A DNA stretch of 25,018 bases from a virus. How positions within the stretch are numbered: position 1 is the stretch's first letter; every line of letters starts with the position of its first letter. Shown here piece after piece: positions 2,822-18,924 of this stretch. The notes beneath the pieces were generated by a model. The model was not told the origin of the DNA and did no database searches. It saw only the letters and a program-made list of their open reading frames with translations. Made by a program: the position numbers and the translations under genes. The stretch lies in UHGV virus genome UHGV-1360762. One strand, 5' to 3'.

Positions 2822-3660
2822 TTCGCCTCCTGCGGCGGTTCTGGTAGCGGCATCCAGAACAAGGCGTTCCCTAACCACGATAAAGTGCCGTCGCTCAACT
2901 CCACGTATTCCCCTTGTACCTGTCCTGCCATATACTCGCCGTGCTTTGAATAAATTAAAATCCAATCATCTTGAGGGGGCATTCGCTCACTACAGCTTAT
3001 CCAACCATCCGGAGTTACCGGAGAGTTGCCTGCCAGTCTACGCAAAACAGCCTTAACAGCCTCAATACGGTCATCATCGTAACTTTCCGCCGTATCTATG
3101 CGGTCGAGCATGATGATTGCGTTATCAATATCAGGATTGCCGGTCCACTCATTACCGCGATTGGATTCGGCAGCCTGGTTGCCGCGTACTGGTTGATTGT
3201 CGGCTTTACCCAGTCTGTCGTCGCTGCATGAATGCCCTTCCAGCCAGGCCAATGCTTGTCGCATGAAATACGCAATATGTTTGCCGTGGTAATCGTCTTC
3301 ATCGATGTGAAAAGCGATACTACGAATGTATTCAATTGCGTTTTCAATGGCCTCTAACGCTATCGGCGCTGGCGGAGTGGTATATAGTTTTCGGCATTTG
3401 TTTATCCAACCGGCATGGTCAGGCGTGTCTGTAAAGCGCAAATCGTCTTCGTAGCCCTCACGACTACGTTCTTTCCATTCCGTCCACGGAACACCGCTAT
3501 TCCAGGTGGGGCGAGTGCAGGACTGATACAGAACAGGCTCTGCTTCCAGCGATGCCAGTGCGATTTCATAAGCCCGACGCTCAATATTGTCTCGAACGTC
3601 CAGGCTGCCTATGCGCTCTTTGATTTCTTTAATTAGTTCTTTGTCGGTGAACGTTGTCAT
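2818..3660 (-). CDS. Ea22-like / DUF551-containing phage protein (280 aa)
   Basis: C-terminal region DGWISCSERMPPQDDWILIYSK...LSWLGNALFWMPLPEPP resembles the DUF551 signature of lambdoid early-left proteins. Confidence 0.6.
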   Translation of the reverse strand: MTTFTDKELIKEIKERIGSLDVRDNIERRAYEIALASLEAEPVLYQSCTRPTWNSGVPWTEWKERSREGYEDDLRFTDTPDHAGWINKCRKLYTTPPAPIALEAIENAIEYIRSIAFHIDEDDYHGKHIAYFMRQALAWLEGHSCSDDRLGKADNQPVRGNQAAESNRGNEWTGNPDIDNAIIMLDRIDTAESYDDDRIEAVKAVLRRLAGNSPVTPDGWISCSERMPPQDDWILIYSKHGEYMAGQVQGEYVELSDGTLSWLGNALFWMPLPEPPQEAK

Positions 3661-13755: not shown

Positions 13756-14208
13756 GTGACAATGAAGCAAATATACATGCTTCGCAACGAAGCAATCAGA
13801 AACAACGCCATAGACGCAATACTCTCACTTCCGATCGACGACAAGTCACCTCACGAAGTCCACGTTAAAGAACCCAAGCGGAGCAATCCTCAAAACCGCC
13901 TTATGTGGGCGTTATTGCAGGACGTATCGCGTCAGGTGCTTTGGCATGGAAAGAGACTTGCGCCGGAGGACTGGAAAGATCTGTTCACTGCCCTGTGGCT
14001 TAAGACCAAAAAACTGGAGCAACGAAGTGCGCCTGGTATCGACGGTGGCGTTGTCATGCTTGGCGTGCGTACCAGCAAAATGCGAAAGGCCAACATGACT
14101 GAGCTTATCGAAATCATGTTCTGGTTCGGCTCAGAGCGCAACGTGCGGTGGAGTGATGACTCCCGGCGAGAGTATGAATGGTCACAACGAAAAGGGGAGG
14201 CTGCATGA
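13756..14208 (+). CDS. ninB: NinB-like recombination protein
   Basis: Collinear similarity to recalled lambda NinB (…QNR.LWA.L.DVSRQV.WHG…, SDD(E)SR.EYEW..R.GE.AA C-terminus). Confidence 0.8.
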   Translation: MTMKQIYMLRNEAIRNNAIDAILSLPIDDKSPHEVHVKEPKRSNPQNRLMWALLQDVSRQVLWHGKRLAPEDWKDLFTALWLKTKKLEQRSAPGIDGGVVMLGVRTSKMRKANMTELIEIMFWFGSERNVRWSDDSRREYEWSQRKGEAA

Positions 14209-14732
14209 CTATCAAATCAAATACGCCAGCACACGACAAGGACTGCTGGCAAACGCCGCTTTGGCTTTTTGATGCACTGGATATTGAGTTTGGATTCTGG
14301 CTGGATTCGGCAGCGAGCGACAAAAATGCTCTATGTGCTCACTGGCTAACTGAGGCCGACGACGCGCTCAATTCTGAGTGGGTAAGCCACGGTGCAATCT
14401 GGAATAACCCACCGTACAGCAATATCAGGCCGTGGGTGGAAAAAGCCGCTGAGCAGTGCATGCAACAGCGACAGACGGTAGTGATGCTTGTGCCAGAGGA
14501 TATGTCAGTAGGATGGTTCAGCAAGGCTCTGGAGAGCGTTGACGAAGTTCGCATCATCACTGATGGACGGATTAATTTTATCGAACCATCGACAGGGCTG
14601 GAGAAGAAGGGGAACAGCAAAGGTTCCATGCTGCTGATTTGGCGACCGTTCATCAGTCCTCGACGGATGTTTACTACCGTATCCAAAGCGGCATTGATGG
14701 CGATCGGGCAGGGCGTAAGGAGGGCGGCATGA
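14205..14732 (+). CDS. Phage DNA N6-adenine methyltransferase (Dam-like)
   Basis: Catalytic motif IV NPPY (WNNPPYSN); ATG at 14205 preceded by AAAGGGGAGG and overlapping the ninB stop; occupies the lambda ninC slot. Confidence 0.75.
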
Positions 14733-14905
14733 GACGACAGCGACGAAGTATCACCGACATAATCTGTGAAAACTGCAAATACCTTCCAACGAAACGCTCC
14801 AGAAATAAACCCAAGCCAATCCCAAAAGAATCTGACGTAAAAACCTTCAATTACACGGCTCACCTGTGGGATATCCGGTGGCTAAGACATCGTGCGAGGA
14901 AATGA
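14729..14905 (+). CDS. ninE: NinE
   Basis: [58 protein letters not shown] matches recalled lambda NinE; start overlaps the methyltransferase stop. Confidence 0.85.
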
Positions 14906-15309
14906 CAATGCTTTTAATTCAACCTGGATTTGGACTTAGCATCAAAAAAGGCCACATGTTTGGCGAGAAAGAGTCACAACGAAAAATGGTGTCTATCCGG
15001 TTGCCATTTATCAGTATTTATTGGCTAAACAGGGAGGCAACAAATTATTGGTATACATGCGCCAGAGCAGCATTTAACGACCCTGACTGGTTTGTGAAAA
15101 ACCACCACGCAGTTCGTCAGGCAAAGAGAAAGGCCAACCTGACATACATGAAGGCGTATCAAAAAGCATGGAAAGAACACCGCGATCGATACCAGCAAGA
15201 CATGGAAAAGCTTGAATCAGAAAACATGGAATTAAGACGAAAGCTTGGTGAAGCAAAACGAGATATTGATGCTTACAAGCGACTTTTTAATGGTGAAAGC
15301 CATGCTTAG
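14902..15309 (+). CDS. Hypothetical protein (135 aa) at the ninE-ninF junction, C-terminal coiled coil
   Basis: ATG at 14902 preceded by GAGGAA, overlapping the ninE stop (ATGA). C-terminus [31 protein letters not shown] looks coiled-coil. Same position as P22 ninX; homology not verified. Confidence 0.5.
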
Positions 15310-15478
15310 TCCATCCCAATCCCTTCAATACCAGAAAGAAAGCGTCGAGCGGGCTTTAACGTGCGCTAACTGCGGTCAGAAGCTGCATGTGCTGGAAGTT
15401 CACGTGTGTGAGCACTGCTGTGCAGAACTGATGAGCGATCCGAATAGCTCAATGTACGAGGAAGAAGACGATGAGTGA
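15302..15478 (+). CDS. ninF: NinF
   Basis: [51 protein letters not shown]... matches recalled lambda NinF. Confidence 0.85.
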   Translation: MLSPSQSLQYQKESVERALTCANCGQKLHVLEVHVCEHCCAELMSDPNSSMYEEEDDE

Positions 15479-15980
15479 TGTTAAAGAAAAAGATATCCCC
15501 GGCTTTGAGGGTATATATAAAGTAACTGAAAATGGAGACATCATTTCATGCCGTAAATCAAAAAAATTATCTCATGGCATTAAACCAGGAGGATATGCAT
15601 TTGTCGGTCTGTATCCAGGTGGCGGGAAAAGACCATCATATAAAATGGTTCACAGAATTGTTGCAGAAGTATTTATTGATAACCCAGATGGCAAACCGGA
15701 AGTTAATCACAAGGATGGAAATAAACTTAATAATAAAGTTGAAAATCTTGAGTGGGTAACGCGAACAGAAAATGCGAAACATGGATTTGATTCCGGATTG
15801 CTTGTTCATGGGTTTAATCATCACTTCTGCAAACTAACGCCAGAACAAGTGAAATCAATATATAAATCAAAAGGCAAATACAGAGATATAGCCAAAGAAT
15901 TTGGTGTTTGTGCGCAGACAGTGTGCAACATAAAAAACAAATCAGCGTACCGACGTTTTTTGGAGGGGATTGATGTTTAG
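15471..15980 (+). CDS. HNH homing endonuclease (NUMOD4-like N-terminus plus HNH_3)
   Basis: GFEGIYKVTENGDIIS (NUMOD4-like) and VHRIVAEVFIDNPDGKPEVNHKDGNKLNNKVENLEWVTRTENAKH (HNH_3-like); coding sequence visibly more AT-rich than neighbours. Confidence 0.8.
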   Translation: MSDVKEKDIPGFEGIYKVTENGDIISCRKSKKLSHGIKPGGYAFVGLYPGGGKRPSYKMVHRIVAEVFIDNPDGKPEVNHKDGNKLNNKVENLEWVTRTENAKHGFDSGLLVHGFNHHFCKLTPEQVKSIYKSKGKYRDIAKEFGVCAQTVCNIKNKSAYRRFLEGIDV

Positions 15981-16248
15981 AAGCAAAAAATGGCTTCAGG
16001 CAGTCAGGGATATTGAATTTTGCGTTCTTTGCGGAAGATACGGAGTTCAGGCCGCTCACAGAAATGAAGGGAAGGGGGTTGGGATTAAAGTAGATGATTG
16101 CCTTACTGCTGCGCTATGTGTTGATTGTCATTCAAGAATTGATAATGGGAGAGATATGAGCAGGGAAGAGCGAAGGGCTGAAATGGATCGGGCCATTGTG
16201 CTTACCCTTAAAAAATTGGTTAACAATGGGAGGGTGTTTGTCCAATGA
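15970..16248 (+). CDS. YbcO-like (DUF1364) zinc-binding nin-region protein
   Basis: Cys/His pattern C..CG…AH…ALC..CH..ID and location directly upstream of rusA, as in DLP12 ybcO-rusA. Confidence 0.6.
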   Translation: MMFRSKKWLQAVRDIEFCVLCGRYGVQAAHRNEGKGVGIKVDDCLTAALCVDCHSRIDNGRDMSREERRAEMDRAIVLTLKKLVNNGRVFVQ

Positions 16249-16607
16249 ACGAATATCAGTTTGTGCTTCCATACCCGCCGTCGCTGAACACCTACTGGCG
16301 AAGACGGGGAAGCCAATATTACATAAGCGATAAAGGCCAGAAATACCGAAAAGACGTTCAGCAAATCATCCACCAACTCAAGTTAGACATTTTCACCAAA
16401 TCACGACTCCGCATCAAAGTAATCGCAGACGTTCCAGACTCCCGCCGCCGCGACCTCGATAACATCCTGAAAGGTTTACTCGACTCACTTATCCACGCCG
16501 GATTTGCGGAAGACGACGAGCAATTCGATGACATTCGCGTAATTCGTGGTGTGAAAGTACCAGGTGGAAGGCTTGGAATAAAAATCACCGAACTGGAGAA
16601 CGCATGA
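16245..16607 (+). CDS. rusA: RusA Holliday junction resolvase
   Basis: 120-aa protein with LPYPPS.N.YWRRRG and DVPDSRRRDLDNILKGLLDSL matching the RusA family. Confidence 0.9.
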   Translation: MNEYQFVLPYPPSLNTYWRRRGSQYYISDKGQKYRKDVQQIIHQLKLDIFTKSRLRIKVIADVPDSRRRDLDNILKGLLDSLIHAGFAEDDEQFDDIRVIRGVKVPGGRLGIKITELENA

Positions 16608-16792
16608 ACGCCACAATTCAAACGATACCAGAGCTTCTTATCCAGACACGAGGCAATCAGACCGAAGTGGCAAGGATGCTTTCCTGCGCAAGAGGAACAG
16701 TGCTCAAGTACAACCGAGACAGCAAAGGCGAGCGTCACGTAATAGTTAACGGCGTCCTGATGGTCAAACAAGGCAAGAGGGGAAGACGATGA
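16604..16792 (+). CDS. ninH: NinH-like DNA-binding protein
   Basis: TIPELLIQTRGNQTEVARMLSCARGTVLKYNRDSKGERHVIVNGVLMV resembles recalled lambda NinH. Confidence 0.8.
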   Translation: MNATIQTIPELLIQTRGNQTEVARMLSCARGTVLKYNRDSKGERHVIVNGVLMVKQGKRGRR

Positions 16793-17307
16793 GCATAAGA
16801 GAACTAAACCTCACCAAAGAGCAGCACGAGTGGCTGAATGGCTGGCTTGAACTGTGGGGCGCATGGGTTTATTCAGGTCGTCTGGAAAAGCGCATGAGCA
16901 GCGTAATAGCGAAGTTCATGGAGAGCGTAGAGCCGGGAAGAGTTATGACAAGGCCAATGTGCAATGATGATGATGGAATGTTGATTTCTCAGGTCGTCGA
17001 TTCCGTCATGTGCATTGACAAGAAAGCCTTTGGCATCCTCCTCAGCTACTACGCTCATGGTTCATCTAAGCGAGCAATTGCATCCTACTATCACGCGACT
17101 GCAAAGCCACGCAAGATGTGTGGACGTGGTGGCGAGGGATGGAGAAAACCTTCACTGGCAACCTGTAGAAACGAAATTGACGACATCCTGAAAGCGTCGT
17201 TATTTGTTTTGTACCAGCCAATGCAAAATGCTTTCAAAATGCGTAAACGTGTTGAGAAAGTTAAGCATGTTGCTGTTAAAAGCCTTGACATGCAATTATC
17301 CATTTAG
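16789..17307 (+). CDS. Q: Late gene antiterminator Q (phage-82-type Phage_antitermQ family)
   Basis: LELWGAW… and TRPMCNDDDGMLISQVV motifs resemble the ERWGAW / RPQCCDDD signatures of this family; followed directly by a promoter and short-leader terminator. Confidence 0.75.
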   Translation: MSIRELNLTKEQHEWLNGWLELWGAWVYSGRLEKRMSSVIAKFMESVEPGRVMTRPMCNDDDGMLISQVVDSVMCIDKKAFGILLSYYAHGSSKRAIASYYHATAKPRKMCGRGGEGWRKPSLATCRNEIDDILKASLFVLYQPMQNAFKMRKRVEKVKHVAVKSLDMQLSI

Positions 17308-17320
17308 CCATAATATTCAC
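17285..17320 (+). promoter_or_regulatory. pR' late promoter / qut region (-35 TTGACA 17285-17290, -10 CATAAT 17309-17314)
   Basis: Consensus -35 with 18-bp spacer to a near-consensus -10, overlapping the Q stop codon; terminator about 40 nt downstream. Confidence 0.6.
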
Positions 17321-17344
17321 ATATGCTGCTGCTTTTGCATTCAG

Positions 17345-17369
17345 CAACCATCACAAGCCCACCTCCTGT
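17345..17369 (+). terminator. tR'-like rho-independent terminator (AAGCCCAC CTCCT GTGGGCTT + TTTTT)
   Basis: Perfect 8-bp GC-rich stem, 5-nt loop and T-run immediately downstream of the putative pR'. Confidence 0.8.
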
Positions 17370-17501
17370 GGGCTTTTTTGCATTCGCGTGCAATCAAAAC
17401 AAGAGTCTTAGTGATATGGGCCTGAGATATGGTGGTGGAAACATCGCTCCGCTCTTGGCTGTCATATCTACGCGAACAGGCTCTATCCCTAAGGTAAAGC
17501 G

Positions 17502-18014
17502 ATGAAAGAAATAAAATTAACGCCAGAAATGGTGCTTTCTGTTGTTGATTACAATCCATCATCAGGCGACTTTCACTGGAGATGGAGGCAGGGGAGAGAG
17601 AGGACCACTTTGACATGGAACTCTCGTTTTGCTTTCAAGAAATGCTCATCAATAAATTCTGATGGGTATTTAATGATTATGATTAATGGTAAAGCATACC
17701 CTGCTCACAGACTGGCATGGTTGATTGTTTATGGCACCATGCCCGATGGTTTTATTGATCACATCAACAGGGTAAGAACAGATAACCGGATATCAAATCT
17801 TCGTCTTGTCACTCATTCCGAAAATATGCAGAACAGGAAAATTCAGAAGAATAATAAATCTGGATACCGTGGCGTGTCTTGGGATGCTAAGTACGGGAAA
17901 TGGAGAGCAAGAATTAATGCGTCTGGAAAGTGTATTAACCTTGGATACCATGACACTGCCGAACTTGCCGCTGCGGCTTTTGAGGCCGCCAGAATTAAAT
18001 ATCATACCGTTTAA
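17502..18014 (+). CDS. HNH endonuclease with C-terminal AP2 DNA-binding domain (homing-endonuclease-like)
   Basis: HNH_3-like core (…AHRLAWLIVYGTMPDGFIDHINRVRTDNRISNLRLVTHSENMQN) followed by AP2-like YRGVSWDAKYGKWRARINASGKCINLGYHDTAELAAAAFEAA; AT-rich coding sequence. Confidence 0.8.
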   Translation: MKEIKLTPEMVLSVVDYNPSSGDFHWRWRQGRERTTLTWNSRFAFKKCSSINSDGYLMIMINGKAYPAHRLAWLIVYGTMPDGFIDHINRVRTDNRISNLRLVTHSENMQNRKIQKNNKSGYRGVSWDAKYGKWRARINASGKCINLGYHDTAELAAAAFEAARIKYHTV

Positions 18015-18600
18015 AGATGTAGCTGCCGTTAGTGACTCTTAAGTTGCAACGGTGGCTTTTTTGTTTGCACAACAGGTAAGAGCATTGAACCCGCAGACCT
18101 CGCGGAATTGGTGAAAGGTGCCGCGCAGTACTCTTATCGTTGTGGTGAATACGCAGGCTGATGCGTTAATCAGGTGAACGAGACACCCGCCGGTCCGTGA
18201 TATGGCACACCGTGCCGGTCATATCTGCCGCGGTTAGGTTTACGAGGATTTCGTAAAGCTGGTCTAGGGTGAAGCCGTGAAAGCGGAGGAAGTAAAACGA
18301 GGCGTCGGTACACGCCTATCGTCATTAAGTCGGAGTTCAGCACCGACCGCCACAACCCAAACTGAGCCGTAGCCACTGGTTATCCTGAACTCATCAGTGA
18401 TAGTTATGCTGCGGCCTTCTACATATGACCTTCGTGAAAGCGGGTGGCAAGAGGCTGCGCTAACAACCTCATGCCGTTTTGCCCGTGCATATCGGTCACG
18501 AACAAATCTGATTACTAAACACAGTAGCCTGGATTTGTTCTATCAGTAATCGACCTTATTCCTAATTAAATAGAGCAAATCCCCTTATTGGGGGTAAGAC

Positions 18601-18924
18601 ATGAAGATGCCAGAAAAACATGACCTGTTAGCCGCCATTCTCGCGGCAAAGGAACAAGGCATCGGGGCAATTCTTGCGTTTGCAATGGCGTACCTTCGCG
18701 GCAGATATAATGGCGGTGCGTTTACAAAAACAGTAATCGACGCAACGATGTGCGCCATTATCGCCTGGTTCATTCGTGACCTTCTCGACTTCGCCGGACT
18801 AAGTAGCAATCTCGCTTATATAACGAGCGTGTTCATCGGCTACATCGGTACTGACTCGATTGGTTCGCTTATCAAACGCTTCGCTGCTAAAAAAGCCGGA
18901 GTAGAAGATGGTGGAAATCAATAA
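18601..18924 (+). CDS. S: Holin S (class I, dual-start MKM), lambda-type
   Basis: Near-identical to recalled lambda S ([61 protein letters not shown]...); upstream leader also lambda-like. Confidence 0.96.

Follow-up and report, generated by a model that had tools for sequence, protein, structure and literature searches.

A probable free-standing homing endonuclease gene coupled to a YbcO-like gene in the nin region of a P22-like lambdoid phage genome

The UHGV virus genome UHGV-1360762 is a P22-like lambdoid genome, of which at most 58% is covered by any complete Escherichia coli genome. In its nin region an AT-rich gene for an HNH protein lies between ninF and a small gene upstream of rusA, which raises the question whether this gene is mobile in its own right or is one more exchangeable nin module. 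The whole stretch of 25,018 nucleotides (nt) is called the window, and all coordinates refer to it. We consider it likely that the HNH gene is a free-standing homing endonuclease gene, residing in the nin region of P22-like lambdoid phages or prophages, that spreads by intronless homing. Together with the gene directly downstream, which encodes a YbcO-like protein of 91 amino acids (aa) and is called p91 below, it forms one cassette that is conserved from E. coli to Morganella and occurs sporadically. The features concerned are:

15302-15478, plus strand: ninF, 58 aa, left flank (Pfam NinF 3.2e-12, phrog_672)
15458-15463, plus strand: GAGGAA, Shine-Dalgarno-like sequence for the HNH gene, ending 7 nt before its ATG (read from the sequence)
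15471-15980, plus strand: predicted free-standing, I-HmuI-like HNH homing endonuclease gene, 169 aa (ATG at 15471, TAG at 15978-15980)
15489-15614, plus strand: NUMOD4 N-terminal beta-sheet DNA-binding module, residues 7-48 (PF07463, 29.2 bits, cut-off 23.4)
15642-15776, plus strand: HNH_3 beta-beta-alpha-metal catalytic core, residues 58-102 (PF13392, 42.2 bits, cut-off 24.8)
15705-15710, 15744-15746, 15771-15773 and 15780-15782, plus strand: codons of N79/H80, N92, N101 and H104, respectively
15840-15968, plus strand: C-terminal helical (helix-turn-helix-like) DNA-binding domain, residues ~124-166 (model helices, Foldseek)
15962-15968, plus strand: GGAGGGG, Shine-Dalgarno sequence of p91, inside the 3' end of the HNH open reading frame (ORF) (read from the sequence)
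15973-16248, plus strand: p91, YbcO-like His-Me-finger gene, 91 aa (phrog_131 6e-31), with its ATG inside the HNH 3' end
15480-16244: cassette exchanged in comparison with phage ECP1, bounded by the ninF stop and the rusA ATG (blastn of 14800-17400)
16245-16607, plus strand: rusA, Holliday-junction resolvase gene, right flank (Pfam RusA 5.1e-16, phrog_34)

A reading made from the sequence only had given the HNH protein a NUMOD4-like N-terminus and an HNH_3 core, and both Pfam domains were found above their cut-offs. PHROG 59, 'HNH endonuclease', also matched the protein (7.6e-51), and I-HmuI (1u3e) was its sole sequence match in the PDB (E 8.9e-19, residues 6-121). An AlphaFold (AF2) model built from 25 sequences, with a predicted local distance difference test (pLDDT) of 86.6, contained the NUMOD4 strands (E6-8, 16-19, 24-26 and 43-47, pLDDT about 90) and C-terminal helices (H124-132, H137-144, H148-155 and H161-166); a weak Pfam match to the CENP-B_N helix-turn-helix was seen at residues 139-157. 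Foldseek aligned this model with 1u3e_M over 165 columns (E 1.2e-9, probability 1.00, template-modelling score (TM) 0.58), including the C-terminal domain of I-HmuI. No other match was significant, the runner-up having an E of 0.57.

D74, H75 and N96 are the catalytic residues of I-HmuI (PMC12724721). N79, H80, N92 and N101 of the HNH protein align with D74, H75, N87 and N96 of I-HmuI, and N79, H80, N88, N92, N101 and H104 show no variation among 25 relatives (56-72% identity). N79, at the position of D74, was present in 120 of the 120 homologues retrieved and is therefore the norm of the subfamily and not a lesion. The sequence-only reading had made its case depend on conserved HNH catalytic residues; these are conserved on alignment, and as judged from it the active-site motif is intact. 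The protein is predicted to act as a site-specific DNA endonuclease of the I-HmuI type (NUMOD4-HNH-helix-turn-helix). PADLOC matched it with 'HEase' (9.7e-25). A known defence system was considered at this place and rejected, as PADLOC matched 'HEase' models only and left the 91-aa protein, RusA and the upstream ORF without a match.

The HNH gene is compositionally foreign to its surroundings. Its ORF has a G+C content (GC) of 0.367 (0.276 at third codon positions, GC3), and the neighbours ninF, p91 and rusA have 0.503, 0.438 and 0.479. It had been described as more AT-rich than the flanking nin genes, and the base-composition check went further: the ORF is the stretch of 510 base pairs (bp) with the lowest GC in the 25-kb window (mean 0.476, standard deviation 0.032), 0.16% of all 510-bp segments having a GC equal to or below it. 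Genes in this part of the window follow the order ninB, dam methyltransferase, an ORF of phrog_1511, ninF, HNH, p91, rusA, ninH and Q. The HNH ATG is located 8 nt within ninF, of which the TGA occupies 15476-15478, and the reported overlap of the HNH start with the ninF stop was thus confirmed.

No Rfam family was detected across 14800-18700 (cmscan, E<=1), and therefore no group I intron is detectable around the HNH gene. The possibility that the gene is intron-encoded was rejected on this result. Because the ninF, HNH and p91 ORFs are in addition contiguous and overlapping, the gene is counted as free-standing, as had been proposed, with neither an intron nor an intein. Consensus matches for a promoter or terminator of its own were not above shuffled expectation. 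Since no promoter-like site above chance was present upstream, the HNH gene is presumably expressed from the transcript of the early-right (nin) operon, apparently by translational coupling to ninF.

All HNH relatives that reached 60% identity were followed immediately by a homologue of p91. Relatives of ~60-75% identity occur in E. coli (P0003), Salmonella (P0016), Klebsiella aerogenes (P0019), Citrobacter koseri (P0022), Superficieibacter (L020) and the IMG/VR contigs L123 and L141. Morganella morganii (L143-146) carries an HNH gene and a p91 homologue as well; the identity of this HNH to that of the window was not computed. In relatives with gene calls the two genes overlap by 8-14 nt. The linkage is independent of the gene upstream, which can be ninF, an 81-aa or 100-aa ORF, a cytosine methylase or DUF1367, and of the gene downstream, which is rusA or directly Q. 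A scan of IMG/VR with the HNH alignment returned one identical locus and otherwise relatives of <50% identity, and at these more distant HNH loci the YbcO-like neighbour was absent in 80 of 80 cases. A scan of assembled-genome contigs with the same alignment gave a single relevant locus, in Superficieibacter.

The reverse linkage fails. Three E. coli genomes carry p91 (98.9% DNA identity) immediately after a divergent ninF and without the HNH gene, which is also missing from 18 of the 20 IMG/VR loci with a 77-81% homologue of p91. A Salmonella homologue of p91 is present on 869 contigs, and in the four places examined the upstream region was HNH-free (4/4). The start of p91 follows the same division: when linked to HNH, it begins with M(F/Y)RS and has its ATG and GGAGG within the HNH 3' end, and at HNH-free loci it begins 2-9 codons earlier (e.g. 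MAIYRS...).

The relationship of the 91-aa protein to YbcO was approached by sequence and by fold. Its Pfam matches remained below the gathering thresholds (DUF968, PF06147, 19.7 bits against 27.8; YbcO, PF07102, 18.9 against 29.9), and some of its close homologues have precomputed PF06147 matches. It aligns with DUF1364 of the HK97-gp66 type over the C-x-x-C-H-x-x-I-D region (BLASTP 6e-6). A sequence search of the PDB gave chance-level matches to SETD2 only. The model (pLDDT 91.1) matched 3g27 (YbcO) in Foldseek with probability 0.92 over 86 columns (TMt 0.62); other HNH domains were matched too, and the Foldseek E-values were weak (0.14-0.5). Among PDB structures the relationship to YbcO was visible at the level of the fold only, and weakly. 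DUF968 and DUF1364 together make up group 7 of the His-Me finger proteins, typically encoded beside rusA, Q and antirepressor genes (PMC5714182). The position of p91 directly upstream of rusA is as in group 7, and given the fold and this neighbourhood 'ybcO-like' is a fair name for the gene.

The same DNA (98-100% identity) was found in 34 of 5426 complete E. coli genomes, always in the chromosome and, with few exceptions, between ninF and the same p91. PGAP labels the E. coli copies 'NUMOD4 motif-containing HNH endonuclease'. Among 50,697 phage records the carriers are Louie and Dewey only, P22-like phages with a 100% identical protein, whose records annotate an HNH endonuclease. The genome announcement of Huey, Dewey and Louie (PMC12243541) does not mention the HNH gene, and no paper describing this particular gene was found in the literature. 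The remaining phage relatives, spread over Bacillus, Staphylococcus, T5-like and jumbo phages, all fall short of about 45% identity.

What the cassette replaces can be read from the comparison with ECP1. In blastn the two genomes are 98.8% identical up to 15479 and 97.5% identical from 16245, with nothing alignable between these positions. The exchanged block therefore consists of HNH and p91 on one side and of a 270-bp ORF and a DUF1364-type ybcO on the other. Elsewhere the interval between ninF and a ybcO-type gene holds roi (HK97, HK022 and HK620), the 270-bp ORF (ECP1 and mEp235) or NinX/DUF2591. In the sister phage Huey this position is organised as in lambda, with ninF-ninG(rap)-ninH, in agreement with the earlier statement that the gene sits where lambda carries ninG. 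An insertion between ninF and ybcO-rusA had been proposed. The gene order bears this out, but the unit is HNH plus one YbcO-like allele and not HNH alone. Likewise, the suggested comparison with related phages defined the block exchanged in ECP1, but yielded no isogenic HNH-free site.

A second line of evidence comes from the 5' end of the HNH gene. In 18 of 24 HNH relatives the protein begins with 13-17 codons that match the N-terminus of a ybcO-type gene. One such tag, MANLRKEARGRECQV, is identical to gp66 of the ECP1/HK97 type; the tag DNA is identical to gp66 up to nt 45, after which the HNH core follows in frame. Another is MADLRKAARGREC, which we take to be the N-terminus of DLP12 YbcO. 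The copy in the window is itself untagged and starts in the ninF overlap. Two tagged loci, L011 and L012, differ at 3 of the first 15 tag nt but at only six positions over the following ~520 bp of the HNH gene, an indication of recombination between the tag and different ybcO alleles. These loci have exactly 805 bp in common, from the (tag) start codon of HNH to the stop of p91, in unrelated phage backgrounds with random-level mismatch on both sides.

Copies of at least 98% identity showed three types of left junction. In the first a whole ninF of various alleles is present. In the second another gene is joined to the last 52 nt of ninF (L108 and L115). In the third (L009, L118 and L119, of which the HNH copies are 98% identical to the window), roi is followed by nt 1-29 of a DUF1364-type ybcO and the last ~12 nt of ninF. 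Thus, at least two separate joints fall within the first ~50 nt of DUF1364-type ybcO genes, at nt 29 and at nt 45-51. The presumed cleavage site is placed in the ybcO 5' end because the junction scars are found there: more speculatively, the first ~30-50 nt of DUF1364-type ybcO (HK97 gp66 or DLP12 YbcO) would be the candidate site. A candidate 32-nt target taken from the gp66 5' end was absent from the window, which is consistent with such a target but uninformative.

Diversity was determined block by block as the mean pairwise difference in 24 of 25 near-identical loci:

HNH and p91: 0.4-1.1%
rusA and ninH: 2.4-3.0%
ninF: 11-29%
regions beyond ninF, HNH, p91, rusA and ninH: unalignable

Across the HNH-p91 pair the diversity is 3-6 times below that of rusA/ninH. 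The centre of this valley is the cassette, which speaks for recent spread and against old linkage. In the 25 loci all HNH ORFs are intact, and their polymorphic sites are 16 synonymous and 5 non-synonymous, a pattern that suggests purifying selection. Decay was seen in two further copies, L008 (2321-2500, E. coli AH19B041) and L108 (1540-1711, IMG/VR). In both, residues 1-54 of HNH are kept and an in-frame deletion leaves 59 HNH codons, NUMOD4 plus the last 5 residues, so that the catalytic core is lost. The L008 junction reads GGGAAAAG|GGAGGGG, and PGAP calls its 59-aa remnant 'NUMOD4 domain-containing protein'. The deletion appears to be the same in L108, of which the junction was not inspected. 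The start signals of p91 (GGAGGGG) are preserved in both deleted copies and p91 stays intact.

Sporadic presence, HNH-free loci, decayed copies, the diversity valley and the discrete module in unrelated flanks all fit a selfish mobile gene. With the fold match to I-HmuI and the conserved catalytic residues, these comparative data uphold the homing-endonuclease assignment of the sequence-only reading. The enzyme would be expressed from the early-right operon in the lytic cycle. When phages co-infect a cell, or when a resident prophage is encountered, it would nick or cut a site of 20-30 bp in cassette-free genomes, and recombinational repair (phage Red/Erf-type functions together with Orf and RusA) would copy the cassette into the broken genome. 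The linked YbcO-like allele, presumably uncuttable, would be co-transferred as a resistant replacement. The outcome would be intronless homing, seen genetically as marker exclusion. Cleavage, its site, unidirectional conversion and marker exclusion are all inferred here from sequence and by analogy with related enzymes. A more specific version is put forward tentatively, as a possibility that we do not favour strongly: HNH and p91 might constitute an allele-replacing drive among temperate lambdoid phages. The enzyme would cut DUF1364-type ybcO at about nt 29-51, and repair would overwrite it with HNH and a paralogue resistant to cleavage. About 15 codons from the start of the victim gene would stay fused in frame to HNH, as its translation start and as the left homology arm in a further round.

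Several observations weigh against homing by this gene. The cassette is rare, being present in 34 of the E. coli genomes, whereas the allele proposed as its target, DUF1364-type ybcO, occurs in 938 of the 5426; this is unlike a highly efficient drive. Neither the 5426 E. coli genomes nor IMG/VR yielded an isogenic empty site, in which a ninF of the window type is directly followed by p91. At the three E. coli loci without HNH, ninF is a different allele (~30% protein identity, estimated by eye and not computed). In the absence of an isogenic empty site the insertion event itself is therefore not reconstructable. Furthermore, the HNH family has Asn79 where I-HmuI has Asp. Just two junction positions are clearly independent (nt 29 and nt 45-51), and the ybcO-type tag may descend largely from one old event and not from many. 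Finally, HNH was never found apart from p91, and its spread is therefore inseparable from ordinary lambdoid module exchange.

This last point leads to the main rival explanation, that of a passive mosaic module. The HNH gene would be a relic that no longer homes and has become welded to the YbcO-like gene, which it supplies with a ribosome-binding site and a start codon, and the pair would travel by ordinary lambdoid recombination. Such a module would account for the swap with ECP1, of which the boundaries coincide exactly with the stop of ninF and the start of rusA, like those of other nin modules, for an HNH gene that never occurs without p91, for a cassette that is infrequent compared with the DUF1364 allele and for the deleted HNH copies. 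It is nevertheless rather doubtful as an explanation: the catalytic residues are invariant over relatives of 56-72% identity, the ratio of 16 synonymous to 5 non-synonymous sites suggests continuing selection, the diversity valley within otherwise diverged flanks points to recent spread, and junctions recur within the first 29-51 nt of ybcO-type genes. 

Homing also has to be weighed against functions that would benefit the phage. The endonuclease could be a weapon in competition, which damages co-infecting or superinfecting lambdoid phages with a sensitive site and brings a benefit independent of gene copying. Early expression from the operon, as deduced from its coupling to ninF, would suit this role, PADLOC counts homing endonucleases among its defence-related models and matches the HNH protein, and an intron endonuclease involved in phage-phage interference provides a published precedent (PMC11620839). 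However, such a role is compatible with homing and does not exclude it, and transfer of the gene itself is evident from the junction scars and from the 805-bp module shared between unrelated flanks; as a replacement for homing the weapon is unlikely. It is very improbable that HNH and the 91-aa YbcO-like protein are the two components of one nuclease, which acts with RusA in recombination or DNA processing for the good of the phage and is not selfish. The pair is strictly conserved with its overlap of 8-14 nt, its members diverge roughly in parallel (HNH 60-75%, 91-aa protein 64-81%), and both are His-Me-finger proteins encoded next to rusA. However, the dependence goes one way: p91 is common without HNH and stays intact beside HNH copies that have lost the catalytic core. 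Most lambdoid phages, moreover, have ybcO-rusA or ninG without such an HNH gene, the base composition of HNH is foreign, and the closest relative to have been characterised is a homing enzyme.

That relative, I-HmuI of Bacillus phage SPO1 (PDB 1U3E; isoschizomer I-BasI), has the same three-part architecture as the HNH protein, a similar size (174 aa versus 169 aa) and the same catalytic His and Asn, at about 29% identity. It differs in having Asp74 and an Asn where the HNH family has Asn79 and the last His (H104). I-HmuI is a nicking enzyme encoded inside a group I intron of the SPO1 DNA polymerase gene, whereas the gene described here lies between protein genes of a temperate enterobacterial phage.

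Free-standing relatives of I-HmuI are described for lactococcal Skunavirus (PMC12724721), where their number and position vary, their clades follow the insertion site and marker exclusion has been demonstrated for some. Similarly, the clade of at least 60% identity is tied here to one location, directly upstream of p91. The Skunavirus HNH proteins are from other hosts and another type of phage and are below about 45% identical to the present one, and the passages of PMC12724721 that deal with them mention no fusion to the 5' end of a neighbouring gene. Fusion of this kind has a parallel in gene 31 of the P22-like Salmonella phage epsilon34, an in-frame fusion of a host gene and an HNH gene (PMC2629481). 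It is the same kind of scar as the ybcO-type tags on most of the relatives, although gene 31 belongs to the early-left operon and involves a different resident gene.

MobE, SegF and SegG of T4-like phages are intergenic endonuclease genes that undergo intronless homing with localised marker exclusion; they are thought to cut a nearby conserved gene in genomes that lack them and to be copied together with a resistant flank (PMC2988022, PMC2790892). A cassette that replaces the ORF and the DUF1364-type ybcO fits this pattern, and MobE is a predicted HNH enzyme. In T4-like systems the phages are lytic and activity was shown by experiment, whereas the activity of the present enzyme is predicted; also unlike those systems, an entire alternative allele of the presumed target would here be transferred as the flank. 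The Seg proteins belong to a different enzyme family. Closer in concept to an HNH gene that moves with a divergent YbcO-like allele is the 'collaborative homing' of F-CphI and the psbA intron of cyanophages, which Zeng, Bonocora and Shub reportedly described in 2009 and in which a free-standing endonuclease is said to move with a cut-protected version of its target. There the protection is due to an intron in the site and the nuclease is of a different family, whereas allele divergence would be responsible here.

The HNH gene itself is one more uncharacterised I-HmuI-like homing endonuclease gene, correctly labelled by automatic annotation. Its obligatory linkage to a YbcO-like gene, the ybcO-derived tags, the candidate target and the cultured carrier phages are what is added here, and this gives it some value as an experimental system but is not surprising. 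The exchange of nin modules is usually attributed to homologous and illegitimate recombination alone. Louie and Dewey are cultured and sequenced carriers that infect E. coli K-12, cassette-free close relatives exist with ninG (Huey) or with DUF1364-type ybcO (ECP1, HK97 and HK620), and the comparative data point to a narrow candidate target. This would make a convenient system in which to ask whether homing endonucleases contribute to the mosaic exchange of nin modules in temperate phages.

Further HNH genes were encountered near the same loci. In a Salmonella sequence (L150, 3294-3791, GCA_007730405.1) a different HNH_3 gene of 165 aa lies between a YbcO-like gene and rusA, and at two E. coli hits (H195 and H201) a protein labelled 'HNH endonuclease signature motif' is encoded beside DUF1364. 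HNH genes thus seem to have a second point of insertion at the ybcO-rusA junction. L012 (a contig of Logan ERR702855) carries a further HNH_3 gene of 182 aa at 2996-3544, ~450 bp upstream of the tagged cassette, so that the nin region of that phage holds two HNH genes. In Morganella morganii prophages (L145/L146, 3825-4955) a 376-aa product combines HNH_3 with weak or faint DUF1133 and antitermination-Q matches, apparently as the result of fusion of an HNH endonuclease gene with Q or of its insertion there.

The window has a second, unrelated HNH gene of its own at 17502-18014 on the plus strand (170 aa, HNH_3 2.1e-18, AP2 2.8e-8, phrog_99, GC 0.411), and thus contains two putative homing endonuclease genes 1.5 kb apart. 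NCBIfam has no model for the HNH protein, the 91-aa protein, this second HNH protein or gp66. The second gene is located in the interval between Q and the holin gene and is found at the same place in HK629. CUS-3 and Huey match only its flanks and are about 700 bp shorter, as in a presence/absence insertion. A near-consensus promoter (TTGACA-18-CATAAT, 11/12 matches) overlaps the end of Q within 17285-17375 on the plus strand, and a strong terminator-like hairpin is present at 17355-17375. This arrangement fits the late promoter pR' with its short terminated leader, which would place the second HNH gene just downstream, in the leader of the late transcript.

On the other side of ninF, the ORF at 14866-15309 on the plus strand (phrog_1511 3.7e-86, GC 0.418) lies between the dam methyltransferase gene and ninF. 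It is present in Louie and ECP1 and absent from Dewey and mEp235, and represents another variable nin module. At 13756-14732, also on the plus strand, ninB/orf is followed by an overlapping gene for a phage Dam (N6-adenine) methyltransferase (Pfam Dam 4.6e-65); the prophage of strain WP4-S18-ESBL-08, although similar in other respects, has a cytosine methyltransferase between ninE and ninF instead.

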